Shown: piece by piece, positions 24,406-54,641 of the stretch
How the letters are laid out: every line of letters begins with the position of its first letter
Position numbering within the stretch: the first letter of the stretch is position 1
Assembly: GCA_903847205.1 (NCBI GenBank)
Contig: CAINDA010000065.1
Location: 67,929-131,928 of the forward strand
Length of the DNA: 64,000 nucleotides
Reading direction: 5' to 3'
DNA from: an uncultured Bacteroidota bacterium
Lineage (GTDB): Bacteria; Bacteroidota; Bacteroidia; 2-12-FULL-35-15
Program-made: the position numbers and the translations under genes
Notes under the pieces: model-generated
Database searches by the model: none
The model's input: only the letters and a program-made list of their open reading frames with translations
What the model was told of the DNA's origin: nothing

Positions 24406-24408
24406 TCT

Positions 24409-28218: not shown

Positions 28219-28229
28219 ATTAAACAAAA

Positions 28230-29306
28230 ATGGAAGACGAATTAAAAGCCTTATCAAAAGGAAACAAAGTTATTTTCAAGCAAAATTCTGTTCCTCTTTT
28301 TCAAAATAAAGTTTACCGTACAAAAGAGGAAGCACTCAATGCCCCTACAGGCGAAGTACAGCTTGCTGAATCTGCACAAACAGGTTTTATTTTTAATAAA
28401 ACATTTGATAACAGTTTGATGGACTATGATGCCGACTATCATAATGAACAATCGAATTCGCCGATATTTAAAGAACATCTGCAATATGTTTTTGATCTTA
28501 TTAAGAGATATGATCTTACTGGCAAAAAAGTAGTAGAAATAGGATGCGGGAAAGCTCACTTTTTTAATCTTATGAAAGAAAACGGAGTTAACTGCATTGG
28601 GTTTGATCCTGCCTATGAAGGCAATGACACAGCCATTATAAAAGATTATTTCAGTGACAAATATGACATTAACGGCGATTTAATTATACTCAGGCATACA
28701 CTTGAACACATAGAAAATCCACATTTATTTATTTCCGACATCGCAAAAGCAAACAAGTACAGAGGATATATTTTTATTGAAGTGCCTACTTTTGACTGGA
28801 TAAATAAAAAACAGGCTTTTTGGGATGTTTTTTATGAACATTGTAATTATTTTACTGAAACAAGCCTGGGCTCTATGTTTAATAAAGCTGAAACAGGGAG
28901 CTTTTTCGGGGGACAGTATATTTACTGCTATTCAGCCCTGAAAGAATTAAAAACTACTATTGAAAAGAAATCTGAAGGCTCAATTGAAAATATATCATTC
29001 GATTCAAGCGTTTTAAAATGGGGGAAATTTCTTGACGAGAAAAAAAATATCGCAGTGTGGGGTGCAGGTGCAAAAGGCTCAACTTTTTTAAATTTACTGG
29101 ATCAGAAAAAAGAAAAAATAAAATTTGTTATTGATATTAATCCCGAAAAGCAAAACAAATTTATTGCCCGCACATGTCATCCAATATATTCTCCAAAAGC
29201 GCTTGAAGGCAGCGGTATTGAAAACATTTTAATAATGAATGAAAATTATATTGACGAAATAAAAGCTGCAGTAAATAATCCAAACATTAATTTTTATTGT
29301 TTATAG
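28230..29306 (+). CDS. SAM-dependent methyltransferase with C-methyltransferase C-terminal domain (second C-MT-like gene, lacks zinc ribbon)
   Basis: SAM motif VVEIGCGKAHFFNLMKENGVNCIGFDP. The C-terminus IAVWGAGAKGSTFLNLL...FVIDINPEKQNKF aligns with the C-terminus of the 24957 gene product (IAAYGAAAKGSTMLNF...). Confidence 0.55.
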   Translation: MEDELKALSKGNKVIFKQNSVPLFQNKVYRTKEEALNAPTGEVQLAESAQTGFIFNKTFDNSLMDYDADYHNEQSNSPIFKEHLQYVFDLIKRYDLTGKKVVEIGCGKAHFFNLMKENGVNCIGFDPAYEGNDTAIIKDYFSDKYDINGDLIILRHTLEHIENPHLFISDIAKANKYRGYIFIEVPTFDWINKKQAFWDVFYEHCNYFTETSLGSMFNKAETGSFFGGQYIYCYSALKELKTTIEKKSEGSIENISFDSSVLKWGKFLDEKKNIAVWGAGAKGSTFLNLLDQKKEKIKFVIDINPEKQNKFIARTCHPIYSPKALEGSGIENILIMNENYIDEIKAAVNNPNINFYCL

Positions 29307-29310
29307 ATTC

Positions 29311-30348
29311 ATGCTGAAAAAAATAACACTGATAACAATATCAAGAAACCGGCATCCCTATCTCGAGAGAATTATTGATTATTATGCGAACAGCGCCATT
29401 CAAGTGCTTATTGCAGATGACAGTAAAGAAAAATATTCAAAAGTCCTGCCTCCCAATACTGCGTATTACCAATATTCAGGAGTGCCTTATTTATTCAGGT
29501 TTGATGATATAATTCAAAAAGTAAAAACTCCTTACGTTGTATTTTGTGCCGATGACGATTTCATTGTTCCTGAAGGAATTTCAAAATGCGTTTCATTCTT
29601 AGATACTAATCCCGATTATAACTCTGCTCACGGGCAATATGTTTTTTTTTATCACAGCAAAAATAAACTGTTTTACACACCAGGTTATTTAGTTACAGTT
29701 GGGTGTGATATTAATGAAGATACAGCAATGGGCCGGACTGAAAGGTATAAAAAACTCCCTATTCAATTATGCTATTGTGTTCACAGAACAGAAAATTTGA
29801 AGCTGACATTTAACACTTTAAAAAATTCTGTAAATAATTTAGGCCTGTTTGAAACTATAATAGGTATGAAAACTTTAATTGAGGGGAAACATAAAGTATT
29901 ACCTGTTTTTTATTCTGCGCGGCAAAGTTTATACAGCTCCGCAGGCAGCGGCGCCAGCATTGATGTTTGCGCTTCAAAGGATGAATATAAAAATGAATAT
30001 AATTCCTATCTTGTTGAAATGGCTTCCCTGCTCTCAAAAAAAGATAATATCCCTTTTGATGAAGCATTTGCTTTTTTTAAACAATTGATGGTTGAATTTG
30101 TTGATTATAGATATATTTCAAAACCATCTTCAAAAAAAATGATGATGAAGTTTATAAAAAAAACAATTCCTTTTGGCCTGCGTAAAGGAGCACGTCATTA
30201 TTTATTACTTCTTCAGGAACAAAACAAGAAAAAGAATAATATTCAATTATCTCAAAAAATAAATAGTTTTCCTTTTATCACAGGCAGTCCTGAAAATAAA
30301 GAACTTCAAAAAATAGAGAACTGTATTTTAAAATATAATGTAAAGTAA
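29311..30348 (+). CDS. Putative GT-A fold glycosyltransferase (GT2-like)
   Basis: The N-terminus ITLITISRNRHPYLERIIDYY...VLIADDS resembles GT2 (IPTYNR...DDGS). FCADDDF is a possible DxD motif. Length is 345 aa. The match is weak. Confidence 0.4.
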   Translation: MLKKITLITISRNRHPYLERIIDYYANSAIQVLIADDSKEKYSKVLPPNTAYYQYSGVPYLFRFDDIIQKVKTPYVVFCADDDFIVPEGISKCVSFLDTNPDYNSAHGQYVFFYHSKNKLFYTPGYLVTVGCDINEDTAMGRTERYKKLPIQLCYCVHRTENLKLTFNTLKNSVNNLGLFETIIGMKTLIEGKHKVLPVFYSARQSLYSSAGSGASIDVCASKDEYKNEYNSYLVEMASLLSKKDNIPFDEAFAFFKQLMVEFVDYRYISKPSSKKMMMKFIKKTIPFGLRKGARHYLLLLQEQNKKKNNIQLSQKINSFPFITGSPENKELQKIENCILKYNVK

Positions 30349-30395
30349 ATTCTTTAATTTCGGGTTCATAACAACCTCTAAAATCAAGCATCTAA

Positions 30396-31877
30396 TTGGG
30401 AATTATAGAAAAGCAGGCAACCAAAAACTTAATATACTCTTATCTTGGAGCAGGGCTTGGTTTTGTTACTTTAATGTGGTCGTCGCATTTATTAAGTCCG
30501 GATGAAAACGGATTAACGCGCATTTTACTTTCAATCACAGCTCTCTTTTCTCAATTTGCAAGTTTAGGATTCAATGCAGTAACCTCTCGTTTTTTTCCTT
30601 ATTTTAGAAATAAAGAAAAAGGCCATCATGGCTACCTGTATTATGGCATCATCACCACTTTAGCCGGATTTACGCTATGTTACATTACATTCTATTTTTT
30701 CAAAGATCAAATAATTGCCGATAATCAACAAAAATCAAAGTTATTTGCCGACTATCTTTTTTACTTAATGCCTCTTACCTTCTTCACTTTATTTTTTGGT
30801 TTATTCGATTACTATTTAAGAGCCTGTTATAGATCAGTTATCGGCTCCTCTTCAAAAGATTTAACCCAGCGCATTTTAATTCTGGCAGTCCTATTTTTAT
30901 ATTTTTTAAAAATAATCAACTTTAACATTTTTGTTTTTTTATATGTTGCAGCAACTTGTATTCCTACTTTAATTCTTCTCTATTATATTGTAAAACTTGG
31001 CGAATGGCATGTAAAACCTGTTAGAGGATTTGTGAGCAAAGAGCTTAGAAAAGAAATGATAAACCTTAGTTTATATGCAATAATAATAGGTAGTTCCGGA
31101 ATTTTAATGTCGAGTATTGATGTAATAATGGTGAATCAAAAATTGGGCCTCAAACAAACTGGTATTTACGGCATTGCGTTTTATTTCGGCAGCATCATAA
31201 TTATTCCATCACGCTCATTACTGCGGATTGCGATGGGGATTGTTGCTGATGCATTTAAAAAAAATGATCTGGAAGAAATCAGCCGTTTGTATAAAAAATC
31301 CTGCAACAGCCAGCTGACAATCGGTTTATTACTTTTTATCGGAATATGGTGTAATATAAATAACATTATGGCTTTATTGCCTCCGGAATATGCAGGAGGT
31401 AAAAACGTAATACTGTTTATCAGTTTAGGCAATTTAATAGATATGGGAACCGGCTTTAATTACATCATAATGATGACTTCAAAACATTACAGGTTTGATG
31501 GAATATTTATGATCATTATTTTATTTTTAACAATATTTTTAAACTATCTTTTGATTCCCATCTACGGAATCACAGGATCAGCAATAGCAACAGCAACAAC
31601 CATTGCAGCTTATAATATTATGAGATGGCTGTTTTTACTTTTCAAATTTAAAATGCAGCCTTACGATTTAAATAATGTAAAAATTATTGTTATCGCCGCG
31701 ATAGCTTTTTTACCCGGGTATTTTATGCCGTACTTAAATTTTCTGGTGATTGATATAGCCGTGAGAAGCGGGATTGTAGGAGGATTATTTATTCTCTTAC
31801 TTTTAAAAACGGAAGCAGCCCCCGAAATAAATATCAAAATCAGAAAAAACCTGAAACGATTTTCAATTCATATTTAG
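30396..31877 (+). CDS. Wzx-like oligosaccharide flippase (MOP superfamily polysaccharide biosynthesis protein)
   Basis: A 493-aa protein with ~12-14 TM helices. GLTRILLSITALFSQFASLGFNAVTSRFFPYF is a Wzx-type N-terminal block. The predicted start is TTG. It is a clear paralog of the gene at 59764..61233. Confidence 0.65.
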   Translation: MGIIEKQATKNLIYSYLGAGLGFVTLMWSSHLLSPDENGLTRILLSITALFSQFASLGFNAVTSRFFPYFRNKEKGHHGYLYYGIITTLAGFTLCYITFYFFKDQIIADNQQKSKLFADYLFYLMPLTFFTLFFGLFDYYLRACYRSVIGSSSKDLTQRILILAVLFLYFLKIINFNIFVFLYVAATCIPTLILLYYIVKLGEWHVKPVRGFVSKELRKEMINLSLYAIIIGSSGILMSSIDVIMVNQKLGLKQTGIYGIAFYFGSIIIIPSRSLLRIAMGIVADAFKKNDLEEISRLYKKSCNSQLTIGLLLFIGIWCNINNIMALLPPEYAGGKNVILFISLGNLIDMGTGFNYIIMMTSKHYRFDGIFMIIILFLTIFLNYLLIPIYGITGSAIATATTIAAYNIMRWLFLLFKFKMQPYDLNNVKIIVIAAIAFLPGYFMPYLNFLVIDIAVRSGIVGGLFILLLLKTEAAPEINIKIRKNLKRFSIHI

Positions 31878-36571: not shown

Positions 36572-37267
36572 TTATTGGCAATTACAATTATTGGTACATG
36601 TTTGCCAAACTTTTTGTAAAGCATCTGCTAAACCATCTTTTAATTGCTTTTCTGTTGTTACGGTATTTGCTCCCGCTTCTTTATAACACCCATGGGCTAA
36701 CAAATATTTATATTTGGCATAATTGGCACAGTTCTCTGCCCATGCAAGATGCTGTTCAATTGCCAAGTCCTTGTATTTTTTTACAACAGGATCGGATGTA
36801 CTGTTGTTTTCGCAGTCGGCGAAAGTTGTTGCTGCAGCATTTTCGCTTACATTGTTTTTACTTTCATTTCCAAGTGCTATTCCAGTATTTTTTACTTCAT
36901 CTTTTTTAAATTCAAGGTTCTGTCCGTTTAAGAAAATATTTAAATGTTTTGTATCCTCTTTAAGTGAAAAAAAGTCGGGCGCAGTATAGGATCCAAGTGG
37001 CGTACTTAATTTTAATGTATATAAGTCGATGGGAAGGGTTAGTGTTTTTGCTTCTTTCGGATCAAATATATATTGATTCTCGTTAAAATATATTTTAACA
37101 GCCGCATCCCCCTCCCATATTGCCTGAAAAGTAATGCCGGCAGTAACTGGAGATTTTTTTGATTGATCTGAATTGGCAATTGTATTCTGTTTCACATTCT
37201 GTGAAGATAAAATGGATGTCGTAAAATTTAAAGTGATAAATGTGATAAAAAAGAATTTAGCTTTCAT
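36572..37267 (-). CDS. Hypothetical secreted protein
   Basis: Signal peptide MKAKFFFITFITLNFTTSILSSQN with a Cys-rich C-terminus. The overlapping + strand ORFs are low-complexity artefacts. Confidence 0.5.
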   Translation of the reverse strand: MKAKFFFITFITLNFTTSILSSQNVKQNTIANSDQSKKSPVTAGITFQAIWEGDAAVKIYFNENQYIFDPKEAKTLTLPIDLYTLKLSTPLGSYTAPDFFSLKEDTKHLNIFLNGQNLEFKKDEVKNTGIALGNESKNNVSENAAATTFADCENNSTSDPVVKKYKDLAIEQHLAWAENCANYAKYKYLLAHGCYKEAGANTVTTEKQLKDGLADALQKVWQTCTNNCNCQ

Positions 37268-37702: not shown

Positions 37703-40700
37703 TTAAATTTTAATTCCGATTAGAGTTACGTCATCTATCTGCTCCAAATTACCTTTCCAGGAATGAAAAGAAGATGCCAGTAATGCTTTTTGCTCCGGCA
37801 TTTCCTTTGTCGAATTTATTTTTAATAATTCCTTTAATTGTTTATGCATAAATTTTTTGCCTTTATCTCCTCCGAATTGATCTGCATAACCATCGGTAAT
37901 TAAATAATATGAGGTATCTCCGATGTATTCCAATACGCGAGTAGTAAATGGTTTGCTCATTTCCTGTTTACCAACTGGCTGCTTGTCGCCCTTGATTTCA
38001 AGCATTTCTCCATTTGAGAAATACCATAAAGGATTATTTGCACCGCTCCACTGAATTTGTTTTGAGATTTTATTAATTGACAATAAAGAAATATCCATTC
38101 CGTCTTTTACATTCTCGCCGCTTTTTTCAAATGTTTCAATTACCAAACTCCTGGTTTTATCAAGAATTTCACCTGTATTTCTTAAACCAAATTCTTTAAC
38201 TGCCCTGTTGAGTGCATTACTGCATACAACACTAATCATAGCGCCGGGAACACCATGGCCCGTACAGTCCGCTGCAGCAATAAAAATCTGATCTTCAAAT
38301 TTCTCGAGCCAGTAAAAGTCTCCTGCAACAATATCCTTAGGTTTATAGAGTACAAAACTATTCGGGAAATATTGTTTTATCATTTCAAAGGATGGCAAAA
38401 TGGCATTCTGAAGGCGTTTCGCATACGTTATTGAATCAGTGATTTCTTTATTTTTTTCCTCTACCAATTCTTTTTGATGCTTCAGTTCAAATGTGCGTTC
38501 AGTTACTTTAAATTCCAATACTTTTTTCTCCGAAATTAATTTCCTTTCGCGGTATCTTATAAAAAAATAAACTGCGCTGATTCCGAAAATAATCATCAAT
38601 GAATAAAACCATTTTGTTTTCCAAAATGGGGGTTGAATTATCACTTTTACGCTGCATCCTCTATTATTCCAATGTCCTTCATTATTAGCACCTTTTACAC
38701 GAAAAATATACTCGCCCGGATCGAGGTTTGTATAAACCGTTTCATTTTTAGCACCCGAGAAAACCCAGTCTTTATCAAAGCCTTCAAGCATATAAGCAAA
38801 TTGATTTTTTTCTGGAAAAATAAAATTTAATGCAGCAAAGGAAAAAGATATTGAGTTTTGATCATAATTAAGATCAATTTCTTTTTTAAGTATTAAAGAG
38901 CTGTCTAATGATGCTTCCTTACCAAATAATTTAAATCCTGTAAGTGCAATTTTCGGAGGTGTTTTGTTTTCAATAATATCTTCAGGAGAAAAAGTATAAT
39001 ATCCATCCCCGCCGATATATAATTTTTTATCAAATTTCGATTTTATTGCAGCAGATCCTGCAGCGCCCTCAAAGGGTAGTCCATCCTGCGTTTTAAATAT
39101 TTTCAGTATTCCTTTTGGATATAATGAATCATTATTTTTACCGCCAAGATAAGATGGAGGAGTATAAAATGTCATGCTGGATGCGGTACACAGCCACATC
39201 GAGCCGTCATCATTAAATAGAATGGGGCCGACATTATTATCAGGTAAACCATCATTATCGGTCAGGTGCCAGAATTTCACCTTTTGTAAATCCCTTTTGA
39301 GAGATTTTAAATTCAGAGCATTTAAACCTCCTCCGAAAGTACCAACCCATAGTATTCCGGTTGTTGGATCAATTTCAATATGAAATATTGAATTATAACT
39401 CAAACTATTCGCGTCATTGTTTTTATATATAAAACGGGTAAATTTTTTTGTTTCAGGATCAAAAGTATTTATACCTCCACCCATTGTTCCGACCCAAAGA
39501 AGTTTATTCCAGCGATCCCATTTCATATCCATTATTCTATTATCATTAAGTGAAGCAGGATCATTGCTCTTTTCCTTTGTCCACCTAAAAACAGAATACT
39601 TTTCAGTATGCGTGTCAAATTTTACCAGTCCGCCTCCTAGCGTACCAAGCCATAAAATTCCATTTTCACCTTTCAGGATATTTGCCTGCCTGTGTATTTT
39701 CGCTATTTCGGGTTTATCTTTTTCTTCATTTTCTCTGAAATAACGTTTTACTACTTTCCATGTTCTAGTATCAAATTTTATAAGACCGTTTTCTGTACCA
39801 ATCCACATGATATCATTTTCATCTTCTGAAAAATTATAAACAAGTCCCAGATCGGCTTCCTTGTTGAGAATATGCCTTGTTATTCCAGTTGTTCTGTCTA
39901 TAACAGTTGCTCCTGAACCATAATAGCCGATCCATAGATTATTGTTTTTACTTTCATAAAATGTAAAAACGGCATTTGATAAAATTGGATCATCCTGTTT
40001 TTCTATATGAGTAATTGATTTAGTTTTAACAGGCATTTTGTACATAACCTCCAGAGATGCATTTTTACCCACTATCCATATACTGCCTTTCGAATCTTCA
40101 AAAAAAGTCTGGTAAGAACCGCCTCCATCGTTTGCTGAAATTGGGTTTTCAGGGTCGTGAATAAAATGCTGAGCAGTTTCGTGAATTCTGTCAAAAATGT
40201 CGCATCCTTTATTTGTTTTCAAAAGCAGGTTTCCGTTTTTCATCACCAATAAGCCTGAAGGATCTGATAATAGGGATTCAGGGTCTTTCGGATTGTGATA
40301 AAATGTTTTACATTTTTGAGTTTTCAAATTGTAAAAAATTAATTCCTTATTTGTTATGCAGACTAATTCGGTATCAGAAATTTGTTTTGCTTTCCAAACA
40401 GAATAAGAGGAACTAAATTTGTAGGGGATATTATACCTTTTTATTTTTCCGGTTTCAGGATCAAACAAATCAATGGACTGTCCTACATTCCCAAAATAAC
40501 TTAACCAAAATTTACCATCTTTAGTTATATCCAGTAATACAGGAGCGTTTGTTAATATGGAAGTACTGTCGTTATCCTTATGCGTATAATTAATAAATGA
40601 TTCAGTAGAAGGATCGAATACACATAAGCCCCCGCCATAGGTGGCCATCCAGATTCTTCCTTTTTTATCTTCGGAAAGCCCCCAGTTAATTCTTGTTGAA

Positions 40701-41107
40701 CCAAGTGTGTTTACCGGATTTTTATATTGTTTGAATTTTTCATTGATGGGATCATACTTGTATATTCCTATACCGTCGAATCCAACCCACAGTGTTCCAT
40801 TTTTTGTAACCAGCAGAGTCCGCACAGCATCGGTTTCAAATGTATTTGTATCCGACTGTAAATGTTTAAATGCTTTAAATATTTTGCCGTCATATCGGTA
40901 CAAACCATTATTGGTGCCAATCCAAATGAAGCCTGAAGAATCTTCTGCAACAGCAGATATATCATAATCCTTAAAATTTATTTCTTTTCCCGGGTGATAA
41001 AATACGAATGATTCAGGATCTTGTATCGGATCAGGATTTTGCGAATGGCATAAAAAAGAAATGAAAAGTAAAAAAAACAGACTGCAGGCAGCAAAAAAAT
41101 TATTCAT
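37703..41107 (-). CDS. Periplasmic beta-propeller/Y_Y_Y sensor fused to a PP2C-type (SpoIIE) serine phosphatase
   Basis: A signal peptide precedes many two-component-regulator propeller repeats (WIGTNNGLYRYD, LWVGFDGIGIYKYD, LWIGYYGSGATVID...). Then come a Y_Y_Y block (GEYIFRVKGANNEGHWN), a TM helix (WFYSLMIIFGISAVYFFIRY), a coiled coil and a PP2C core (VAGDFYWLE...AADCTGHGVPGAMIS...DGMDISLL...ITDGYADQF). Length is 1134 aa. Confidence 0.75.
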   Translation of the reverse strand: MNNFFAACSLFFLLFISFLCHSQNPDPIQDPESFVFYHPGKEINFKDYDISAVAEDSSGFIWIGTNNGLYRYDGKIFKAFKHLQSDTNTFETDAVRTLLVTKNGTLWVGFDGIGIYKYDPINEKFKQYKNPVNTLGSTRINWGLSEDKKGRIWMATYGGGLCVFDPSTESFINYTHKDNDSTSILTNAPVLLDITKDGKFWLSYFGNVGQSIDLFDPETGKIKRYNIPYKFSSSYSVWKAKQISDTELVCITNKELIFYNLKTQKCKTFYHNPKDPESLLSDPSGLLVMKNGNLLLKTNKGCDIFDRIHETAQHFIHDPENPISANDGGGSYQTFFEDSKGSIWIVGKNASLEVMYKMPVKTKSITHIEKQDDPILSNAVFTFYESKNNNLWIGYYGSGATVIDRTTGITRHILNKEADLGLVYNFSEDENDIMWIGTENGLIKFDTRTWKVVKRYFRENEEKDKPEIAKIHRQANILKGENGILWLGTLGGGLVKFDTHTEKYSVFRWTKEKSNDPASLNDNRIMDMKWDRWNKLLWVGTMGGGINTFDPETKKFTRFIYKNNDANSLSYNSIFHIEIDPTTGILWVGTFGGGLNALNLKSLKRDLQKVKFWHLTDNDGLPDNNVGPILFNDDGSMWLCTASSMTFYTPPSYLGGKNNDSLYPKGILKIFKTQDGLPFEGAAGSAAIKSKFDKKLYIGGDGYYTFSPEDIIENKTPPKIALTGFKLFGKEASLDSSLILKKEIDLNYDQNSISFSFAALNFIFPEKNQFAYMLEGFDKDWVFSGAKNETVYTNLDPGEYIFRVKGANNEGHWNNRGCSVKVIIQPPFWKTKWFYSLMIIFGISAVYFFIRYRERKLISEKKVLEFKVTERTFELKHQKELVEEKNKEITDSITYAKRLQNAILPSFEMIKQYFPNSFVLYKPKDIVAGDFYWLEKFEDQIFIAAADCTGHGVPGAMISVVCSNALNRAVKEFGLRNTGEILDKTRSLVIETFEKSGENVKDGMDISLLSINKISKQIQWSGANNPLWYFSNGEMLEIKGDKQPVGKQEMSKPFTTRVLEYIGDTSYYLITDGYADQFGGDKGKKFMHKQLKELLKINSTKEMPEQKALLASSFHSWKGNLEQIDDVTLIGIKI

Positions 41108-41184: not shown

Positions 41185-44004
41185 TTACTTGCTCAAATAC
41201 AAATTTCGCTCTGAATAAATTGTATGAAAAAATTCATCTGTTAAATCGTCAATAAAATAAATTGCTTCACCGGTTGACTTCATTTCGGGGCCGAGCTCTT
41301 TAATTACTTCAGGAAATTTATTGTAGGAAAACACCGGGATTTTAATTGCATACCCTATTTTGCGCGGATTGAATTTAAAGTCTTTCACTTTCTTTTCGCC
41401 GAGCATAACTTTGGCGGCATAGTTTACATACGGCTCGTCATAAGCTTTTGCAATAAACGGCACTGTGCGTGATGCGCGCGGGTTGGCTTCAATAATATAT
41501 ACTACTTCATTTTTTATTGCAAACTGTATATTCAATAAACCGACAGTATGCAGAGCCAATGCGATGGTTTTTGTATGCTGTTCAATCTGTTTAAGCACGT
41601 TTTCGCTCAAATCAAAAGGAGGAAGCACAGCGTATGAATCGCCAGAATGAATTCCTGCAGGCTCTATGTGCTCCATGATGCCTATAATATAAACATCTTC
41701 GCCGTCGCATATAGAGTCAGATTCCGCTTCTATGGCTCCTTCTATGAAATTATCAAGCAGTACTTGGTTGCCAGGATGATCTTTTAATAAATTTACAACA
41801 TGCTGTTCTAACTCAGCTTCATTGATAACAATTTTCATATTCTGTCCGCCAAGCACATACGAAGGACGCACTAGCAGAGGGAAGCCGAGTGTTTTTGAAA
41901 GTTCAACGGCCTGTTCACCGTCTTCAATTACGCCGAATTTCGGGTAAGGGATATTATTTTCTTTTAAAAGTTTTGAAAAGCTTCCTCTGTCTTCGGCTAA
42001 ATCCAGTGACTTATAATCTGTACCGATAATTTTGATGCCGTATCGTTCGAGCTTTTCAGCAAGCTTTAAGGCTGTTTGTCCGCCAAGCTGAACAATAACA
42101 CCAACAGGCTTTTCATTCAAAATAATATCATAAATATGTTCCCAGAAAACAGGCTCGAAATATAATTTATCAGCAACATTAAAGTCGGTGGAAACCGTTT
42201 CGGGGTTGCAGTTTATCATTATAGTTTCGTAGCCGCATTCTTTAGCGGCAATCACTCCGTGAACGCAGCTGTAATCAAATTCAATTCCCTGCCCGATGCG
42301 GTTTGGACCGCTGCCAAGTACAATTACTTTTTTATTATCCGAAGCAATGGATTCATTTTCATCTTCAAATGTGCTGTAGTAGTAGGGTGTTTTAGCTTCA
42401 AATTCTGCGGCACAGGTATCTACTAATTTATAAACACGTTTTATTTTTAATTCCTGTCTGCGGTTAAACACTTCACTTTCCAAGCATTTCAGAAGATGTG
42501 CAATCTGTCTGTCAGCATATCCTTTTTGTTTGGCTTCATAAAATAAATCGCGCGGAAGCTGAGGCAGCGTATATTTCGAAATCTCGCCTTCCAGCAGAAT
42601 CAATTCTTCAATCTGGTTTAAAAACCAGGGATCAATGTGGGTGAGCTTTTGAATTGTTTTGATGGAGATGCCTAATTTAATTGCATCGTAAATATGGAAA
42701 AGCCTGTTCCAGCTGGGGCGTTCGAGGCTTTTTAATAATTCATTCTGGTTGGTTACTTCTCTTCCGTCGGCGCCTAAACCATTGCGTTTAATTTCCAAAG
42801 ACTGACATGCTTTTTGCAACGCCTCCTGAAAGGACCGCCCAATGCCCATTACCTCGCCGACTGATTTCATTTGAAAACCTAATTCGCGGTTAGCGCCTTT
42901 AAATTTATCGAAATTCCAGCGCGGAATTTTTACAATAACATAATCCAATGTAGGCTCAAAAAAAGCAGATGTTGATTTAGTTATTTGATTCTCTAATTCA
43001 TCCAGGTTAAAGCCTATTGCAAGCTTTGCAGCGATTTTTGCAATAGGATAGCCGGTTGCTTTGCTTGCCAATGCTGATGAACGGGATACGCGAGGATTAA
43101 TTTCAATAGCAATTATTTCTTCCGAGTCATCGGGATTAACCGCAAACTGTACGTTGCAGCCGCCTGCAAAATTTCCGATGCTGCGCATCATTTTAATTGA
43201 CAATGTGCGCATCTTCTGAAAAGTACTGTCAGATAAAGTCATTGCAGGAGCAACAGTAATGCTGTCGCCGGTATGGACGCCCATCGGGTCAAAATTTTCA
43301 ATAGAGCAGATAATTACAACATTATCATTGTTGTCCCGAAGTAATTCAAGCTCATATTCTTTCCAGCCCAGCACCGCTTTATCAATAAGTACTTCATGAA
43401 TAGGTGATGTATGCAGGCCGCGGTCAAGCGCTTTATCAAAATCTTCTTTATGATAAACAACGGCACCCCCGCTGCCTCCAAGGGTAAATGAAGGGCGGAT
43501 TACCAATGGGAAACCGAAATCCTGTGCAATTTCTTTTCCTTCTAAAAAGGAACGGCAGATTTTTGAAGGCGCCATTCCTACACCTATAGATTCCATGCAT
43601 TGGCGGAATTTTTCACGGTCTTCTGTAATTTCAATCGCGTGTATATCAACACCGATCATGCGGATGCCGTATTTTTTCCAAATGCCCATTTCATCGCATT
43701 TCATTGCAAGATTGAGGGCAGTCTGCCCCCCAACACTGGGCAGTACGGCATCAATATGTTTATTTTCTTCTAATATTTTGATTATAGATTTAGCTTCCAG
43801 CGGCAAAAGGTAAATGTTTTCAGCAGTAACCTTGTCCGTCATAATAGTTGCCGGATTAGAGTTAATAAGCGTTACAGTGATTCCTTCTTCTCTTAAAGAG
43901 CGTGCAGCCTGCGATCCAGAATAGTCGAACTCGCAAGCCTGTCCGATCACAATTGGACCGCTGCCGATGATTAAAACTGACTTTATGGAATGATCTCTTG
44001 GCAT
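41185..44004 (-). CDS. carB: Carbamoyl-phosphate synthase large subunit (939-aa form lacking the C-terminal MGS-like domain)
   Basis: Duplicated ATP-grasp halves. The N-terminus MPRDHSIKSVLIIGSGPIVIGQACEFDYSGSQA and the second-half repeat VIVLGSGPNRIGQGIEFDYSCVHG are CarB hallmarks. Confidence 0.9.
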   Translation of the reverse strand: MPRDHSIKSVLIIGSGPIVIGQACEFDYSGSQAARSLREEGITVTLINSNPATIMTDKVTAENIYLLPLEAKSIIKILEENKHIDAVLPSVGGQTALNLAMKCDEMGIWKKYGIRMIGVDIHAIEITEDREKFRQCMESIGVGMAPSKICRSFLEGKEIAQDFGFPLVIRPSFTLGGSGGAVVYHKEDFDKALDRGLHTSPIHEVLIDKAVLGWKEYELELLRDNNDNVVIICSIENFDPMGVHTGDSITVAPAMTLSDSTFQKMRTLSIKMMRSIGNFAGGCNVQFAVNPDDSEEIIAIEINPRVSRSSALASKATGYPIAKIAAKLAIGFNLDELENQITKSTSAFFEPTLDYVIVKIPRWNFDKFKGANRELGFQMKSVGEVMGIGRSFQEALQKACQSLEIKRNGLGADGREVTNQNELLKSLERPSWNRLFHIYDAIKLGISIKTIQKLTHIDPWFLNQIEELILLEGEISKYTLPQLPRDLFYEAKQKGYADRQIAHLLKCLESEVFNRRQELKIKRVYKLVDTCAAEFEAKTPYYYSTFEDENESIASDNKKVIVLGSGPNRIGQGIEFDYSCVHGVIAAKECGYETIMINCNPETVSTDFNVADKLYFEPVFWEHIYDIILNEKPVGVIVQLGGQTALKLAEKLERYGIKIIGTDYKSLDLAEDRGSFSKLLKENNIPYPKFGVIEDGEQAVELSKTLGFPLLVRPSYVLGGQNMKIVINEAELEQHVVNLLKDHPGNQVLLDNFIEGAIEAESDSICDGEDVYIIGIMEHIEPAGIHSGDSYAVLPPFDLSENVLKQIEQHTKTIALALHTVGLLNIQFAIKNEVVYIIEANPRASRTVPFIAKAYDEPYVNYAAKVMLGEKKVKDFKFNPRKIGYAIKIPVFSYNKFPEVIKELGPEMKSTGEAIYFIDDLTDEFFHTIYSERNLYLSK

Positions 44005-44174: not shown

Positions 44175-44330
44175 TTATTTATGAGTTTTTTCGTCAGAAA
44201 CAGTTAATTTTTTTCTTCCTTTAGCTCTGCGGGAAGCCAATACTCTGCGGCCATTTGCAGATGCCATTCTCTCACGGAAACCGTGTTTGTTTTTTCTCTT
44301 TTTTACCGATGGTTGGAATGTACGTAACAT
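44175..44330 (-). CDS. rpmH: 50S ribosomal protein L34 (51 aa; below the ORF-track length cutoff)
   Basis: Hand translation gives [51 protein letters not shown]. This matches the L34 consensus MKRTFQPS.RKR.N.HGFRARMAT..GR.VLA.RRAKGRK.L. Confidence 0.85.
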
Positions 44331-44819: not shown

Positions 44820-46004
44820 ATGATTTTAGAAATCCCAAAGCCGGCATTAACAATGTATAAACAAACAGTTGATTTTATTAAATCACAATTCCCATCTCAG
44901 GATTCGATTCAGCTGCATGAGCCTGTTTTTAATGGTAATGAAAAAAATTATCTGATAGACTGTGTTGATTCAACCTTTGTTTCATCAGTTGGAAAATATG
45001 TGGATAATTTTGAAAAACAGTTGGCTGCTTATACAGGTGCAAAGTATGCTGTTGCCTGCGTAAACGGCACTGCAGCCCTTCACATGGCAATGATTACCGC
45101 AGGAGTTCAAAGGAATGATATTGTAATTACTCAGCCTTTAAGTTTTATTGCAACATGCAATGCCATTGCCTACATTGGTGCATCGCATTTATTTGTGGAT
45201 GTTGATAAGGATACAATGGGTTTAAGCCCGGAAAAACTAAAAACTTATTTGACTGAAAATGCTGTAAAAAAATCAGACGGTTTTGCCTATCATAAGTCAA
45301 CCGGACAAAAAATCGCAGCCTGCATACCCATGCATACATTCGGTCATCCCTGCCGTATTGATGAACTTGCCGTTATCTGCAATGAATATAATATTGCACT
45401 GATTGAAGATGCAGCTGAATCTATAGGCAGTTATTATAAAAATAAACATACAGGCACTTTCGGACTTTTAGGAACATTTAGTTTTAACGGCAATAAAACC
45501 ATTACCTGCGGCGGGGGAGGAGCTATTGTTACCAATAATGAAGCATTGGCAAAAAGAGCTAAATATTTAACCACCCAGGCTAAAGTGCCTCATCGCTGGG
45601 AATTTGTGCATGATGAAATTGGATATAATTACCGGATGCCTAATATTAACGCGGCATTGGCCTGTGCCCAGCTGGAGCAGCTGAATCCTTTTCTTGAAAA
45701 TAAACGCAGTCTGGCGAAGCTCTATTCCGAATTTTTTAAAGGAACCGGGATGCAATTTATGGAAGAGCCGTCTGATTCAAAATCAAACTATTGGCTTTGT
45801 TCAATATTGCTGCCTGATAAAAAAACACGTGACGAGTTTTTACAATACAGCAATGATAACGGGGTAATGACCCGTCCTGTGTGGAGATTAATGAATAAAC
45901 TTGTGATGTTTAAAGATGCCATCTGCGGTAATTTAGATAATGCACAGATGCTGGAAGACAGGCTGGTGAATATACCGAGCAGTGTGAGGATGCAAATAAA
46001 ATGA
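44820..46004 (+). CDS. DegT/DnrJ/EryC1/StrS family PLP-dependent sugar aminotransferase (LegC/PseC-like)
   Basis: LHEPVFNGNEKNYLIDCVDSTFVSS...AVACVNGTAALHMAMI...FSFNGNKTITCGGGGAIVTN carries the conserved Lys (FNGNK). The start may instead be Met12 at 44853. Confidence 0.8.
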   Translation: MILEIPKPALTMYKQTVDFIKSQFPSQDSIQLHEPVFNGNEKNYLIDCVDSTFVSSVGKYVDNFEKQLAAYTGAKYAVACVNGTAALHMAMITAGVQRNDIVITQPLSFIATCNAIAYIGASHLFVDVDKDTMGLSPEKLKTYLTENAVKKSDGFAYHKSTGQKIAACIPMHTFGHPCRIDELAVICNEYNIALIEDAAESIGSYYKNKHTGTFGLLGTFSFNGNKTITCGGGGAIVTNNEALAKRAKYLTTQAKVPHRWEFVHDEIGYNYRMPNINAALACAQLEQLNPFLENKRSLAKLYSEFFKGTGMQFMEEPSDSKSNYWLCSILLPDKKTRDEFLQYSNDNGVMTRPVWRLMNKLVMFKDAICGNLDNAQMLEDRLVNIPSSVRMQIK

Positions 46005-46636
46005 GAGTGCTTGTAATCAGCGATATTCATGGAAATTTACCTGCTTTAGAATACGTTCTTAAGGAGGAGCAATCTGCTGATTTGGTTATTTCATTGGGTG
46101 ATGTTGTAAATTACGGACCTTGGAGTAATGAATGTGTTGATTTAATGGATTCATTAAAAAGTAAAGTTTTGATTTTAGGAAATCACGAAGAGGCATTTCT
46201 TGATGGGCTGTATCAGGGAAGTAATTTAACAGCAAAAGCCTTTTTTGAAATATGTTACCCAAGCTTTAATCGAAAAGACCAAGTCAGTAAGTACATAAAA
46301 ATGTATTCTTTCAAAGATGCAGTTTTTACTCATACATTAAACAATAGCTATATTTTCAATGACTCAGAAATTCAAATTGAGAAAGATACTTTTATCGGCC
46401 ATTCGCACCGGATATTTTTAAAAGATGTAAACGGTTATAGATTGGTAAACGTTGGCAGTGTAGGACAAAACCGTATAAATATCGATGAGCTCAATTATGT
46501 AATCTGGGATACTGAAAATAATTCTGTCGAATTAATGAGAAAAGAATTTAATGTCGATCAGCTTATTCAAGAAATGAAAATTAAAAACTATCCCGAAATA
46601 TGCCTCAATTATATTTTATCTAAACGCATTAAATAA
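46001..46636 (+). CDS. Metallophosphoesterase (calcineurin-like, YfcE-type)
   Basis: MRVLVISDIHGNLPALEYV (DxHG), SLGDVVNYGP (GD motif), GNHE and GHSH form the motif series. Length is 211 aa. Confidence 0.65.
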   Translation: MRVLVISDIHGNLPALEYVLKEEQSADLVISLGDVVNYGPWSNECVDLMDSLKSKVLILGNHEEAFLDGLYQGSNLTAKAFFEICYPSFNRKDQVSKYIKMYSFKDAVFTHTLNNSYIFNDSEIQIEKDTFIGHSHRIFLKDVNGYRLVNVGSVGQNRINIDELNYVIWDTENNSVELMRKEFNVDQLIQEMKIKNYPEICLNYILSKRIK

Positions 46637-46638
46637 TA

Positions 46639-47631
46639 ATGGGAAACAAAATAAATATAGCCATTACGGGAACAGGCAGTTTAATTGGTCAGGCGGTTAT
46701 TAAGTCAATACAGCGTTCTAATCTAAAAGATAAAATTAGTATAGTCGGCTTTGATTATTTTAAAGAAACAGTTGGTTCGTTTTGGTCAGATAAAAATTAT
46801 TTTCTGCCTGATATTTTAAGACCTGGTATCAGCGAGGAAAAATGGATAAACGTAATTATAAATGCAATTCTTGAAAACAACATTAAACTATTATTTGCCG
46901 GAGTTGATTTTGAACTCCCTCTTTTTGCTAAATATAAAACTGTTATAGAGGAAAAAACAGGTGTTATAATAATGGTAAGTTCTGCAGCCGTTATTGAAAT
47001 TGCAGACGATAAATATTTAACTTACGAATTCTTAAAGAAACATGACCTTTCGCATCCAAAATCTTTTTTACCTGGCGAAGCAGATTTTAATACATTAAAA
47101 TATCCTCTGATTATAAAACCCAGAAAAGGAGCAAGAAGCAAGGGTGTTTATAAAGTAAAAGATAAAGATCATCTCTTAAGCGTTATTGACTCAATTAAAG
47201 ATCCGATTATTCAGGAATGTATAGGTATTGACGAAGAAGAATATACCTGCGGAACAATATATTTGAATGGCGAACTAAAAAAAATAATTGTTTTAAAAAG
47301 GAGTTTAAAAGAAGGAAATACGTTTATCTCTCATTACAAAAATGATTTTCCGGAGATTATTACGACCTATTTAAAAGAAGTTTCGAATTACTTAAAACCT
47401 TTTGGGGCTTGTAATTTTCAGTTAAGACTTGATTCAGAAGGCCTGCCTAAAATATTTGAGATTAATTCTCGTCACTCGGGTACAACCTACATTCGTTCAT
47501 TGTTCGGTTTTAAGGAAGTTGAATATATTATCAATTATCTTTTATTTAATATTGAAATGGAATTTGAAATGAGAGAAGGAACTGTGGTGAGATATTTCGA
47601 CGAATTTTTTGTTCAATCTAATAAAAAATGA
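46639..47631 (+). CDS. ATP-grasp domain enzyme (ligase) within the nonulosonic-acid cluster
   Basis: PLIIKPRKGARSKGVYKVKDKD is the B-loop and FEINSRHSGT the Mg/ATP site. Length is 330 aa. Confidence 0.6.
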   Translation: MGNKINIAITGTGSLIGQAVIKSIQRSNLKDKISIVGFDYFKETVGSFWSDKNYFLPDILRPGISEEKWINVIINAILENNIKLLFAGVDFELPLFAKYKTVIEEKTGVIIMVSSAAVIEIADDKYLTYEFLKKHDLSHPKSFLPGEADFNTLKYPLIIKPRKGARSKGVYKVKDKDHLLSVIDSIKDPIIQECIGIDEEEYTCGTIYLNGELKKIIVLKRSLKEGNTFISHYKNDFPEIITTYLKEVSNYLKPFGACNFQLRLDSEGLPKIFEINSRHSGTTYIRSLFGFKEVEYIINYLLFNIEMEFEMREGTVVRYFDEFFVQSNKK

Positions 47632-48485
47632 AAATTTTAATTACCGGCGTTAACGGTTTTGCAGGGAAGGTGCTGTATAAATATTTGTCCCAGCAGCATG
47701 AAGCTGCAGGGATATATAACAGCGGTAAGGCAATGTTTGGTAATTGTTTTAAAGTTGATTTAACAAAAGAAGCCGAAACAATTCAGGTTATTGGAAAGGC
47801 AGGCGGAGGTTCTATTGATGCTATTGTGCATTTGGCTTCACAGACAGCAAATACAGGCAATGTTAATGATCTTTCGGTGCTATTCAATAATGCAGCTATT
47901 TCAAAGAATATTGCTTTAGCAGCCAGAGAATATGCCGTTAAGCAATTTGTTAATTTATCAAGCTCCTCTGTCTATCCCAATATTGACGGTGTATTCCATG
48001 AAAATTCCAGTATAAACCCAGCGTTGAATTCTGACGGCATTTATGGGTTATCAAAATATAACAGCGAAGTGATTTTAGATTATTTTTTGTCTAAAACAGA
48101 AATTGAAATAACACATTTAAGAACCGCAATGATAATCGGCGAAGAAATGGAAAGTACACGTTTAATTCCCGTTATTGAAAATGAAATAGTAGAACATAAT
48201 ACAGTTACATTATTTGGAAAAGGTGAGCGCTTATTGAACTTAATCAGGGTGGAAAAGCTGGCTGAATATGTATCTTTTTTTTTAAGCCATCCATCTCATA
48301 ATATTGTTAATATAGCAGAAGAGTGCTTATCAGTATTTGATTTAGCTAAAAGGATAATTGTTCAAAAAGGGAATGCTGAAACTAAAATTATCTTGAAAGA
48401 AGAAGGAAACAGAAGTAAATTTATTTTGGATATACAAAAGTTGAAAAAAATAATGGCAAATAGCGTGAATCATGGAGAAAAATAA
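47628..48485 (+). CDS. NAD-dependent epimerase/dehydratase family protein
   Basis: MKILITGVNGFAGKVLYKYL Rossmann N-terminus and YGLSKYNSE YxxxK. Length is 285 aa with a 4-nt overlap with the ATP-grasp gene. Confidence 0.6.
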   Translation: MKILITGVNGFAGKVLYKYLSQQHEAAGIYNSGKAMFGNCFKVDLTKEAETIQVIGKAGGGSIDAIVHLASQTANTGNVNDLSVLFNNAAISKNIALAAREYAVKQFVNLSSSSVYPNIDGVFHENSSINPALNSDGIYGLSKYNSEVILDYFLSKTEIEITHLRTAMIIGEEMESTRLIPVIENEIVEHNTVTLFGKGERLLNLIRVEKLAEYVSFFLSHPSHNIVNIAEECLSVFDLAKRIIVQKGNAETKIILKEEGNRSKFILDIQKLKKIMANSVNHGEK

Positions 48486-48641
48486 TAATCTGTAAGTTAG
48501 GCAAAAAAGGTTAAATAAGGGACAGTTTTTGAATAGGCACATGATTTATAGTTTAGTTATTTGTTGATATAATTTATCCTTATACCTTTGATTCGATGAA
48601 TATTTTAATTCACCTGCTTCAATGTCGAAACAATTACCGTT

Positions 48642-50132
48642 ATGAAAAATTTCAAAAAAAAGTTTCAACTTTTATTCATTATATTTTTTATCAATACCTT
48701 TTTGACTTTTACAAAATGTGATGCCCAAAATAATGTCGGTATTGGTACGACTACACCTGCACCATCTGCTTTATTAGATATAGATGCAAGTCCAGCAAAT
48801 GATAAAGGAATACTTATTCCAAGGATGAATACAGGGCAGATGAATGCTATTGTCTCCCCAGCAAATGGGTTATTAATTTATAATACGGATTGTAATGTGT
48901 TCGATTATTGGAACGGCTCAGCTTGGATCCCTTTTCCTTTCTCTGGCATAGGCCCTCCACAGCCTAGCACGATTACTGGCATGAGCCCTGTTTGTTTAGC
49001 TCAAAACGGAGTTGTTTATTCTGTTATCAATGTGAGCGGTGTAACGTACTCATGGACCTATTCTGGTACAGGCTTCACCTGCTCTTCAGGATGCACAAGC
49101 AATACCATAACAGCCGCCTTTTCTGCTTCAGCAACTTCCGGTATTCTCACCGTTACACCAAGCAGTGCCTGTGCTGTTGGCACACCCCAAACCTTTAATA
49201 TTACTGTGAATGGCCTTCCTACTGCTGCCAACGCAGGAGCTGATATAAATCCGGCATGCAGTGTAAGCAATACTACGTTAGCCGGAAATCCACCAATAAT
49301 TGGTACAGGTTCATGGTCGGTAGTATCTGGTACGGCCTCCATCACTACCCCAGGTTCTCCTTCATCTGGGGTCACAGGATTGGCAGTGCCTGGCATAGCT
49401 ACCTTGCGGTGGACAATTTCCAATGCTCCCTGCACCTCGTCAACTGATGATGTTGTTATTACAACTACCTCATGCGGATCCACTTGCGGCTTACAAACAT
49501 TTGCATCAGCTAATTTAAATGTTGGTGTCATGGTAACCAGCGATGGTTCACATACTGCACAGCAGCAAACCAATAACGGTGTTGTCGAAAAATACTGTTA
49601 TAACAACGTGACTGCCAATTGTGCCATTTACGGCGGTTTTTATGAATGGCCAGAAGCAATGAGCTACTCTGCTTCTATTAACTGCGATCCTTGCGGAAGC
49701 AGCGGTGTTCAGGGGATATGTCCTTCAGGTTTGCATATACCGACCGATTTAGAATTTAGCCGCTATGAATATTGCTTAGAAAATACTATTGCGCCGACTG
49801 GAAACACAACTTTGTCAGATTTTCAGACTTTAACAAGCTGGCGCGGCACTAATTCAACAGCAGGACCGGGGGCGAAAATGAAAGTAACAAACAGTAACTC
49901 TCCCGCATGGGATGGCACCAATGCCAGCGGTTTCTCGGCACTTCCCGGAGGATTTCGAACGAGCTCAAATGGTGCGTTCTCAACTATGGGCTTATACTCG
50001 CTCTTCTGGAGTGCATCGGAGAATAGTGGTATTGATGCTTGGGCTCGTCGTCAAACTACAGGCAGCGGGCAGTCCGATCGGGGGCTGGGAACAAAAACAG
50101 GTGGTTTTCAGGTTCGTTGTCTGTACGATTGA
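48642..50132 (+). CDS. Secreted protein with C-terminal Fibrobacter succinogenes major paralogous (FISUMP) domain
   Basis: It has a signal peptide and a central Ig/PKD-like Thr/Ser-rich region. The C-terminus FSALPGGFRTSSNGAFSTMGLYSLFWSASENSGIDAWARRQ...GGFQVRCLYD has the YWSS...A..R....SVRC-type signature of the Fib_succ_major domain. The 171-aa antisense ORF 49058..49573 is spurious. Confidence 0.6.
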   Translation: MKNFKKKFQLLFIIFFINTFLTFTKCDAQNNVGIGTTTPAPSALLDIDASPANDKGILIPRMNTGQMNAIVSPANGLLIYNTDCNVFDYWNGSAWIPFPFSGIGPPQPSTITGMSPVCLAQNGVVYSVINVSGVTYSWTYSGTGFTCSSGCTSNTITAAFSASATSGILTVTPSSACAVGTPQTFNITVNGLPTAANAGADINPACSVSNTTLAGNPPIIGTGSWSVVSGTASITTPGSPSSGVTGLAVPGIATLRWTISNAPCTSSTDDVVITTTSCGSTCGLQTFASANLNVGVMVTSDGSHTAQQQTNNGVVEKYCYNNVTANCAIYGGFYEWPEAMSYSASINCDPCGSSGVQGICPSGLHIPTDLEFSRYEYCLENTIAPTGNTTLSDFQTLTSWRGTNSTAGPGAKMKVTNSNSPAWDGTNASGFSALPGGFRTSSNGAFSTMGLYSLFWSASENSGIDAWARRQTTGSGQSDRGLGTKTGGFQVRCLYD

Positions 50133-50214
50133 TTAGTTAACAATTTGCCTCAAAATTGAGGTTTGTAATTCTTGAAATTATCTATCCTAGATTTGAATTG
50201 ATATTTAATCAAAA

Positions 50215-50757
50215 ATGTTTAAGCACCTAAAATTCATTCTGTTTTATCCTAAAATAGGACCAGATATGTACTTAACACATTGGCTTTTGTTTTTTAAACC
50301 TTTTCGTATGTGGTTTCAAAAATATAAAATTGGGAGCATTGGGTCCAACTCTGAAATAAGGCCTTATTGCACAATTATAGGAACCCAAAATGTAGTTATC
50401 GGAAATAATGTTATTATTCCCAATGGGACGACGTTATGTAATTTACCTGGAGATAAAAAATCATTTATTTATATTGAGGATGATGTGCTGCTTGGACCTA
50501 ATGTGGCTATTTACAGCAGTACACATAATTTTCAGAATATAGAAATTCCTATAAAAAATCAAGGTTACAAAACTGCCGAAACACGTTTAAAAAAAGGATG
50601 CTGGGTGGGAATTAATTCTGTGATATTACCGGGTGTTACAATTGGAAAAAATAGCGTTGTAGGTGCTAATTCTGTAGTAAATATAGATGTGCCGGATTTT
50701 GCCGTTGTCGCCGGTGCTCCAGCCAAAATAATAAAATATATCAATGATCCTAAATAG
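50215..50757 (+). CDS. Hexapeptide-repeat (left-handed beta-helix) sugar acetyltransferase (LegH/PseH/WbpD-like role plausible)
   Basis: Consecutive [LIV]GxxxxI hexads: IGNNVIIPNGTTL, VLLGPNVAIYSS, CWVGINSVILPGVTIGKNSVVGANSVV. The true start may be an internal Met. Confidence 0.7.
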   Translation: MFKHLKFILFYPKIGPDMYLTHWLLFFKPFRMWFQKYKIGSIGSNSEIRPYCTIIGTQNVVIGNNVIIPNGTTLCNLPGDKKSFIYIEDDVLLGPNVAIYSSTHNFQNIEIPIKNQGYKTAETRLKKGCWVGINSVILPGVTIGKNSVVGANSVVNIDVPDFAVVAGAPAKIIKYINDPK

Positions 50758-52878: not shown

Positions 52879-52887
52879 ATTTTATTC

Positions 52888-54623: not shown

Positions 54624-54641
54624 TTATTGTTGAAACAATCC

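Follow-up and report, generated by a model that had tools for sequence, protein, structure and literature searches.

In Pseudomonas aeruginosa, the kinase SiaB phosphorylates SiaC on Thr68 and the phosphatase SiaA removes the phosphate, and SiaC must be unphosphorylated to bind and activate the cyclase SiaD (PMC7278518; PMC7647112). In PPM phosphatases of this branch a dimeric coiled-coil linker docks on the phosphatase dimer and controls its activity, a mechanism that has been shown for RsbU and proposed to be general for PPM phosphatases (PMC12143880). Histidine kinases, cyclases and phosphatases swap the same sensory domains with one another (PMC12143880), and such shuffling of domains is a documented principle and is to be expected. 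The hybrid two-component system (HTCS) protein BT4663 reportedly signals through a scissor-like movement, or closing, of its periplasmic dimer (PMC8534201, citing Lowe et al. 2012). Here we analyse a gene for a predicted sensor phosphatase that joins an HTCS-type periplasmic module to a PP2C domain of the SiaA type. The gene lies at positions 37703..41107 on the minus strand of a 64,000-nucleotide stretch of DNA (the window) from an uncultured Bacteroidota bacterium (assembly GCA_903847205.1, contig CAINDA010000065.1). A preliminary description of the gene had been made from the letters of the window and a program-made list of open reading frames (ORFs) alone, without database searches.

According to the ORF list and its translation, the coding sequence is complete, with an ATG start, 1134 amino acids (aa) and a stop codon, and its product is identical to a protein found in public assemblies (P0001). 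The protein begins with a predicted signal peptide (aa 1–22, MNNFFAACSLFFLLFISFLCHS; 41042..41107, minus strand, as are all segments that follow), which coincides with a hydropathy peak at residues 1–23 and with a helix at residues 2–22 of a structure model, followed there by a low-confidence stretch. Next comes a periplasmic sensor, a tandem beta-propeller of Reg_prop repeats (~aa 34–690; 39038..41008) recognized by Pfam, by matches to Protein Data Bank (PDB) sequences and by Foldseek. The membrane-proximal, Ig-like Y_Y_Y domain (~aa 696–824; 38636..39022) was placed by Pfam, by the alignment of residues 643–787 of PDB entry 4a2l and by beta strands at residues 696–824 of the model. A single transmembrane (TM) helix (aa 832–852, WFYSLMIIFGISAVYFFIRY; 38552..38614), which is the sole internal hydrophobic segment and falls within a model helix at 832–866, is followed by the positively charged RYRERK. 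The cytoplasmic helical linker (aa 853–903; 38399..38551), which carries an L864-E865...E870-R871-T872 motif and an alpha-0 helix, was defined by invariant alignment columns and by alignment to SiaA. It leads into a PP2C/PPM phosphatase domain of the SiaA type (aa 904–1134; 37706..38398), identified through Pfam SpoIIE, the NCBIfam SiaA model, PDB entry 6k4e and a fold match.

Domain searches and structure prediction gave a consistent picture of this protein. In Pfam searches with the 1134-aa sequence, Reg_prop was matched in 5 separate stretches (E 1.3e-27), Y_Y_Y at residues 761–824 (E 5.5e-19) and SpoIIE (PF07228) at residues 939–1133 (E 1.1e-12), the last passing its gathering cut-off of 25 with 48.8 bits. 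The periplasmic region matched the PDB sequence 4a2l (BT4663) at E 5e-67, with 3v9f and 3ott also matched and multiple stretches aligned, and a Foldseek search of the PDB with the N-terminal 820 residues of the model returned 4a2m, the periplasmic domain of BT4663 (E 4e-52, TM-score 0.77 on the target). Kyte-Doolittle analysis found only two hydrophobic segments, at residues 1–23 (the signal peptide) and 832–852 (the TM helix). The AlphaFold2 model, built with 36 homologues as input (mean pLDDT 83.7), has beta structure over residues 34–824, helices at 832–866 and 880–903, low confidence at 862–886 and a PP2C alpha/beta fold extending to residue 1133. The low confidence at 862–886 is as expected for a dimeric coiled coil modelled as a monomer. 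By hydropathy and the model, ~50 residues, helical in nature, separate the TM helix from the PP2C fold, and because this distance is so short no cryptic kinase domain fits between them. Within the linker, S892, A896 and Q900 of the alpha-0 helix and the L864-E865...E870-R871-T872 motif form invariant columns in alignments of homologues. Pfam gave no HisKA, HATPase_c, Response_reg, HTH_AraC/HTH_18 or HAMP match, even at E <= 1, and a hidden histidine kinase, HAMP, receiver or AraC domain was rejected by these searches, by hydropathy and by the structure model alike. The preliminary description had proposed an HTCS-type propeller and Y_Y_Y module wired to a SpoIIE/PP2C output with no HisKA/HATPase, receiver or AraC domain, and both halves of that proposal stand. 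Together, these analyses show a protein composed of a periplasmic double propeller with a Y_Y_Y domain, one TM helix, a linker bearing an ERT motif, and a PP2C domain whose active site is intact.

In SiaA the conserved active-site residues are D457, D474, G477, D600, G601 and D653, and D534 and D604 assist a third metal (PMC7647112). Alignment to 6k4e_A, in which the chain index plus 362 gives SiaA numbering (as checked on GGDFY and VDCAGHG), pairs SiaA residues D457, D474, G477, D534, D600, G601, D604 and D653 with D930, D947, G950, D1005, D1072, G1073, D1076 and D1125, respectively, and each of the latter is invariant in a 36-sequence alignment of homologues with the same architecture. The preliminary description had named a cryptic HK/HATPase domain between the TM helix and the PP2C region, or the loss of the metal-binding Asp residues, as outcomes that would speak against its interpretation, and we found neither; the metal-binding aspartates D930, D947, D1072 and D1125, along with D1005 and D1076, are all in place.

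Comparisons with solved structures place the output module closest to SiaA. The single sequence matched 6k4e, the PP2C domain of SiaA, at E 4.6e-39. A profile of the linker and PP2C domain, made from 18 homologues and searched against all PDB sequences, matched SiaA at E 3e-67 (230 bits), and the next match, RssB, followed at E 7e-6 (28.7 bits), a gap of ~200 bits. Weaker still were RsbX (2e-3), Rv1364c (0.19) and the PstP-like/PrpC-type phosphatases 2y09, 2j82 and 5iti (E 0.6–1.1), and SpoIIE of Bacillus subtilis was not detected in this search. When the model was compared with the PDB by Foldseek, its PP2C fold matched 6k4e with a TM-score of 0.89 on the target and an rmsd of 2.4 A. The linker motif LExxVxERT aligns without gaps to ELEDKVQERT of SiaA. 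Finally, the NCBIfam SiaA equivalog model (NF038263) was matched over its positions 383–656 of 658 with 197.7 bits, compared with 48.8 bits for the generic Pfam SpoIIE family. On these sequence and fold comparisons, the output module is of the SiaA type specifically.

The surroundings of homologous genes point to SiaB and SiaC as partners. In a pooled Pfam scan of the 150 nearest small ORFs (80–300 aa) within 3.6 kb of 49 loci with the same architecture, SiaC (3) and the SiaB-like family DUF6272 (3) were the sole recurring signalling families. Using as jackhmmer seeds the DUF6272 and SiaC genes downstream of one homologue (P0010, locus L004), we identified SiaB and/or SiaC within 10 kb at six loci (L004, L008, L079, L047, L055 and L018). 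By a rough estimate, 6 of 49 is well above chance, given that an unlinked locus would be expected at ~0.5% per 20-kb flank in a 4-Mb genome and with the proviso that the loci are not all independent. In two loci found from SiaC (L092 and L093) the genes run on one strand in the order SpoIIE, [Reg_prop/Y_Y_Y/SpoIIE, 1099–1100 aa], lipoprotein, DUF6272, SiaC, and L004 has the same order from the [Reg_prop/Y_Y_Y/SpoIIE] gene onwards; the siaB-siaC pair is adjacent to genes of this architecture in L004, L008, L092 and L093. The lipoprotein between the phosphatase and siaB, seen in one lineage, has 274–281 aa and no Pfam family (L004:13663-14508, L008:13499-14329, L092:4449-5279 and L093:4451-5275). 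Among the loci covered by a jackhmmer search, a match was common to L004 and L008 only, the proteins of L092 and L093 resembling these in size and position, and the lipoprotein was rejected as a general output candidate on this ground. In the pooled scans, which covered 150 small and 150 large ORFs, the remaining recurring neighbour families were mostly housekeeping ones (enolase, citrate synthase, thioredoxin and L17), which reflect synteny among related metagenome-assembled genomes. The idea of an operon partner conserved across the homologues was not borne out, as the gene maps and the two pooled Pfam scans revealed mostly such housekeeping synteny.

A siaB-siaC pair was also found in a sequencing run that carries the sensor gene. 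A SiaC-family protein (P0163) shares its source pattern with the sensor protein and is present in this run (Logan run ERR4193932). A 339-kb ENA contig (L087) carries its gene directly after a DUF6272 gene, with era and der upstream and dnaN alongside. The DUF6272 kinase scores 165.4 bits against a cut-off of 85 for the NCBIfam SiaB_fam_kinase model, and P0163 is recognized by SiaC models; its alignment with P. aeruginosa SiaC (6kko, 6k4f; E 1e-17) keeps the acceptor motif (LNTSS/FNTSS) and Thr68 in register. The tetranucleotide composition of the contig correlates with that of the window at r = 0.991, compared with 0.993 for a fragment of the window itself and 0.972 for the best unrelated Bacteroidota locus; judged by composition and the shared run, the pair very likely resides in the same genome as the sensor gene. 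The order era, der, siaB, siaC was seen in two lineages (L087:9445-10381; L091:5441-6384). SiaC-family proteins of Bacteroidia (P0121–P0240; 126 aa) share 83–98% identity across 120 clusters at 90% identity, a conservation that is unusual for a protein of this length and that fits a hub contacted by many partners.

We propose, with a probability of roughly 0.6, that the gene specifies a single-pass inner-membrane Ser/Thr phosphatase that operates as a ligand-switched dimer and whose substrate is phospho-Thr68 of a SiaC-family protein. The protein would work as a dimer, and a ligand bound to the periplasmic module would change how far apart the two Y_Y_Y domains and the TM helices stand, in the scissor-like manner of BT4663. 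The TM helices and the coiled-coil linker with its ERT motif would pass this change to the PP2C dimer and so switch its activity. The substrate, SiaC phosphorylated on Thr68, would be produced by a SiaB-family kinase, and the paired genes for SiaB and SiaC would stand at another place in the genome, beside era-der and dnaN. The balance between SiaC-P and SiaC would shift as a result, and dephosphorylated SiaC would bind and control an output protein. The preliminary description had suggested a partner-switching or Ser/Thr phosphorylation route; this suggestion is supported, and is sharpened to a SiaB kinase and SiaC phosphoprotein rather than a STAS/RsbW pair because the output module is SiaA-type.

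Several observations weigh against this proposal. The predicted link to SiaC comes from subfamily similarity, from gene linkage in a minority of loci and from co-occurrence in one sample. SiaB and SiaC are absent within 10 kb of ~88% of the loci with the same architecture. The partner siaB and siaC genes are absent from the 64-kb window, and so from any operon with the sensor gene, both by Pfam scans of ORFs >= 90 aa and by jackhmmer searches of ORFs >= 50 aa. The assignment of the siaB-siaC pair to the same genome was inferred from the shared run and composition, with no joined assembly. The 197.7-bit match to the SiaA equivalog model falls far short of its full-length cut-off of 700, because the N-terminal two thirds of the protein are unrelated to those of SiaA and contain no HAMP domain. 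STAS and HATPase_c_2 were not among the top 25 families near the 49 loci, a scan in which STAS at one or two loci would not show. No GGDEF gene was found in the window by the same Pfam scans, and no GGDEF or SiaD-like gene appears in the gene tables of siaB/siaC loci L004, L087, L088, L091, L092 and L093; given these gene tables, the output of the Bacteroidota SiaC switch probably differs from SiaD.

The nature of the ligand bears on the proposal as well. Three of the solved relatives of the sensor are from glycan-utilisation regulators, and the preliminary description had implied a glycan-sensing role. Genomic context gives no support to such a role: the window contains no SusC/SusD or polysaccharide-utilisation genes, and none recurs near 48 homologous loci. 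Among 150 large neighbour ORFs at these 48 loci scanned with Pfam, TonB-receptor and SusD families were absent from the 25 most frequent families, and TPR proteins and housekeeping enzymes predominated.

The phosphatase could instead take part in partner switching of the RsbU/SpoIIE type, in which a STAS anti-anti-sigma factor encoded elsewhere would be dephosphorylated and a sigma factor freed from an RsbW-like kinase. The Pfam family matched is SpoIIE, and homologues go by the name 'serine phosphatase RsbU (regulator of sigma subunit)' in several sources; moreover, the fold of SiaC is anti-sigma-antagonist-like (PMC7647112), which makes the two routes mechanistically close. Nevertheless, the PP2C module matches SiaA with ~200 bits more than it does any STAS-directed phosphatase whose structure has been solved, and Pfam scans of window ORFs >= 90 aa found no STAS, anti-sigma/RsbW-like or sigma gene, in keeping with the earlier statement that no such partner is adjacent. 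Nor does any of these recur among the top 25 families of the 150 small neighbour ORFs of the 49 loci, whereas SiaB and SiaC do, and we regard a STAS-directed phosphatase as unlikely.

A general Ser/Thr phosphatase that opposes Hanks-type kinases, with several cytoplasmic or membrane targets possibly encoded in the flanking surface-polysaccharide clusters, seems to us a little less probable again. In P0120 a homologous sensor carries a Ser/Thr protein kinase where the phosphatase would otherwise be, so the same signal can drive kinase outputs, and the gene sits between two sugar/nonulosonic-acid clusters, a placement kept in an orthologue of 71% identity. A 2026 report, in addition, describes an Anabaena phosphatase/STAS module that regulates a glycosyltransferase (PMC13555669). 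Against this, the domain belongs to the RsbU/SiaA branch, with PstP/PrpC-type structures reached only at the E values given above, the window holds no Pkinase gene, and the neighbourhood across the 49 loci is conserved for housekeeping genes only. Far more remote is the notion of a pseudo-phosphatase serving as a scaffold, or of a concealed histidine-kinase module: the metal-binding and catalytic residues are all present and invariant, which led us to reject a pseudo-phosphatase, and the interval between TM helix and PP2C domain amounts to ~50 helical residues with no histidine-kinase match in Pfam at E <= 1.

The gene is an ordinary member of a large, widespread and already automatically annotated family. 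In a collection of 5.8 billion proteins, the combination of Reg_prop, Y_Y_Y and SpoIIE is found in 117 of the 120 best cluster representatives, and homologues bear public names such as 'SpoIIE family protein phosphatase', 'two-component regulator propeller domain-containing protein' and 'ligand-binding sensor domain-containing protein/serine phosphatase RsbU'. With one genome per GTDB species, at least 600 stretches were matched, and ~46 of the best 80 loci span the whole protein, nearly all of them in Bacteroidota. The pairing of sensor and output reported in the preliminary description was confirmed; the arrangement is not unusual and is common in Bacteroidota. The literature searched contained no experimental paper describing either this architecture or the SiaB/SiaC proteins of Bacteroidota; one match to 'SiaC' proved to be an unrelated sialidase.

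Searches with the output half alone indicate wider use of this module. With residues 741–1134 as the HMMER query, 23,058 cluster representatives (50% identity) were retrieved at E <= 1e-30. Among the best 150 of these, 114 include the Y_Y_Y region, corresponding to at least 114 clusters at 50% identity, and the other 36 are shorter proteins (340–880 aa) that have only the TM-linker-PP2C module in common with the sensor phosphatase and yet are 58–69% identical to it. By these comparisons, the output module is more conserved than the sensor and recurs on other sensors. Inserts between the TM helix and the PP2C domain occur in some homologues, with PAS domains in P0056, P0067 and P0095 and GAF domains in P0084, P0094 and P0108. 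In one homologue of 1543 aa (P0078), SpoIIE comes after Reg_prop, Y_Y_Y, HisKA, HATPase_c and Response_reg. This protein is a complete hybrid two-component system in which PP2C takes the place of AraC, and it may represent either an evolutionary intermediate or a phosphatase controlled by a phosphorelay.

There are several PP2C sensor paralogues per genome. A TPR-SpoIIE phosphatase (L002:1-623) lies 10 kb from the 71%-identical orthologue, and in both L092 and L093 the second SpoIIE gene stands directly upstream of the propeller-type one. Because the conserved TM-linker-PP2C module occurs on many other sensor types, the phosphatase studied here is probably one of several sensors that feed one SiaB/SiaC switch. 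More tentatively, we suggest that such convergence may be a feature of Bacteroidia at large, with PP2C sensors bearing propeller, TPR and other inputs acting on one SiaB/SiaC threonine switch whose output is other than SiaD; this wider possibility is a good deal more doubtful than the assignment of a single substrate. Were it true, the gene would be one input channel through which an extracellular, possibly glycan, cue reaches a global output that is not a transcription factor.

The analysis also yields a more precise hypothesis, namely that the 'SpoIIE family' sensor phosphatases of Bacteroidota are SiaA-type and probably act on SiaC-family phosphoproteins. No SiaC biology beyond P. aeruginosa is described in the literature searched. 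If the proposal is correct, the glycan-sensing domain of HTCSs is also wired into a threonine-phosphorylation switch in an ecologically dominant phylum, and phosphorylation of SiaC Thr68 would offer a possible read-out of, and entry into, this layer of Bacteroidota signalling.

The immediate neighbours of the sensor gene are those named in the preliminary description, carB and a gene for a small secreted protein. The carB gene (41185-44004, minus strand) lies 77 nt upstream on the same strand. Downstream, after a 435-nt gap, lies a gene (36572-37267) whose 231-aa product has a signal peptide and matches no Pfam family, and beyond it Pfam identified an SDR, a 2OG-Fe(II) oxygenase and a YfhO-like membrane protein. 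On the far side of carB, in an otherwise ORF-poor gap of 816 nt before a DegT gene, a 51-aa ORF (44175-44330, minus strand) looks, from a reading of its sequence, like the gene for ribosomal protein L34 (putative rpmH); an L34 gene (Pfam Ribosomal_L34) also lies upstream of carB, on the same strand as carB, in the contig of the 71%-identical orthologue. That orthologue likewise has 1134 aa and keeps the context of carB, sensor gene, SDR, oxygenase, YfhO and NeuB. Its contig is without the 231-aa gene and has a DUF4834 gene in place of it, and we rejected the 231-aa secreted protein as a partner, given that it has no Pfam match and is not kept beside the orthologue. Promoter and terminator scans of 36.4–44.9 kb gave counts not above shuffled expectation and were uninformative for operon structure, and Rfam and tRNA scans of the window were empty.

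The wider window contains housekeeping genes (urocanase, enolase and citrate synthase), type IX secretion cargo proteins and the two sugar-biosynthesis clusters that flank the sensor gene. The first cluster (20297-31877) encodes a nucleotidyltransferase, a radical SAM enzyme, a dTDP-sugar epimerase, two C-methyltransferases and a flippase. The second (44820-61233) looks like a nonulosonic-acid pathway and encodes a DegT aminotransferase, NeuB (50744-51778), a UDP-GlcNAc 2-epimerase, a CBS-nucleotidyltransferase, a cytidylyltransferase (53940-54623) and a flippase. Three ORFs of the window may encode surface or secreted proteins. A type IX secretion C-terminal sorting domain is present in an 821-aa FG-GAP/PKD/TIG protein (17442-19907, plus strand) and makes up almost the whole of a 116-aa ORF (12283-12633, minus strand), and a 496-aa PKD and Fib_succ_major protein (48642-50132, plus strand) has no sorting-domain match. 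Four ORFs of 140–381 aa matched no Pfam family under the thresholds applied (1357-1779, minus; 14013-14693, minus; 55636-56385, plus; 58396-59541, minus).

The sensor phosphatase was compared with the three closest described systems. Its periplasmic half has the same fold and length as those of the Bacteroides thetaiotaomicron HTCSs BT4663 (4A2L/4A2M), BT3049 and BT4673 (periplasmic domains including 3V9F and 3OTT/3VA6), with two Reg_prop propellers and then a Y_Y_Y domain just before the TM helix at ~23% identity. Unlike an HTCS, it is without HisKA, HATPase_c, receiver and AraC DNA-binding domains and ends with PP2C at residue 1134, and it is predicted to be a phosphatase acting on another protein, whereas HTCSs use an intramolecular phosphorelay to a DNA-binding domain. 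Its gene, furthermore, stands beside neither SusC/SusD nor glycoside hydrolase genes, here or at the 48 homologous loci. The protein thus has the sensor of an HTCS and lacks three of the four defining features, these being the kinase core, the receiver/AraC region and linkage to a polysaccharide utilization locus.

With RsbU, RsbP and SpoIIE of B. subtilis the protein shares the PPM fold, an N-terminal sensory region acting through a helical linker and, as we infer for the substrate here, a small phosphoprotein whose phosphorylation decides its binding partner (PMC12143880). However, their PP2C sequences are far more distant (SpoIIE undetected and RsbX at E 2e-3 with the family profile), none of them is a periplasmic sensor, although SpoIIE sits in the membrane, and they act on STAS proteins controlling sigma factors. 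In its output module the protein is most similar to SiaA (P. aeruginosa PA0172, 6K4E), likewise a membrane-anchored sensor phosphatase, to which the linker and PP2C domain align over ~270 residues with all active-site residues identical, and genes of the SiaB and SiaC families occur in the same sample and adjoin phosphatases of the same architecture in other Bacteroidota. The sensor half is nevertheless unrelated to that of SiaA, being an 800-aa HTCS-type double propeller and Y_Y_Y module that comes with a single TM helix and a signal peptide that is cleavable. In addition, no HAMP domain was detected here, siaB and siaC do not share an operon with the gene, and the Bacteroidota siaB-siaC pairs examined have no SiaD-like diguanylate cyclase nearby. 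The sensor phosphatase therefore differs from a SiaA equivalog, and by its sequence is predicted to be SiaA-like in its working.

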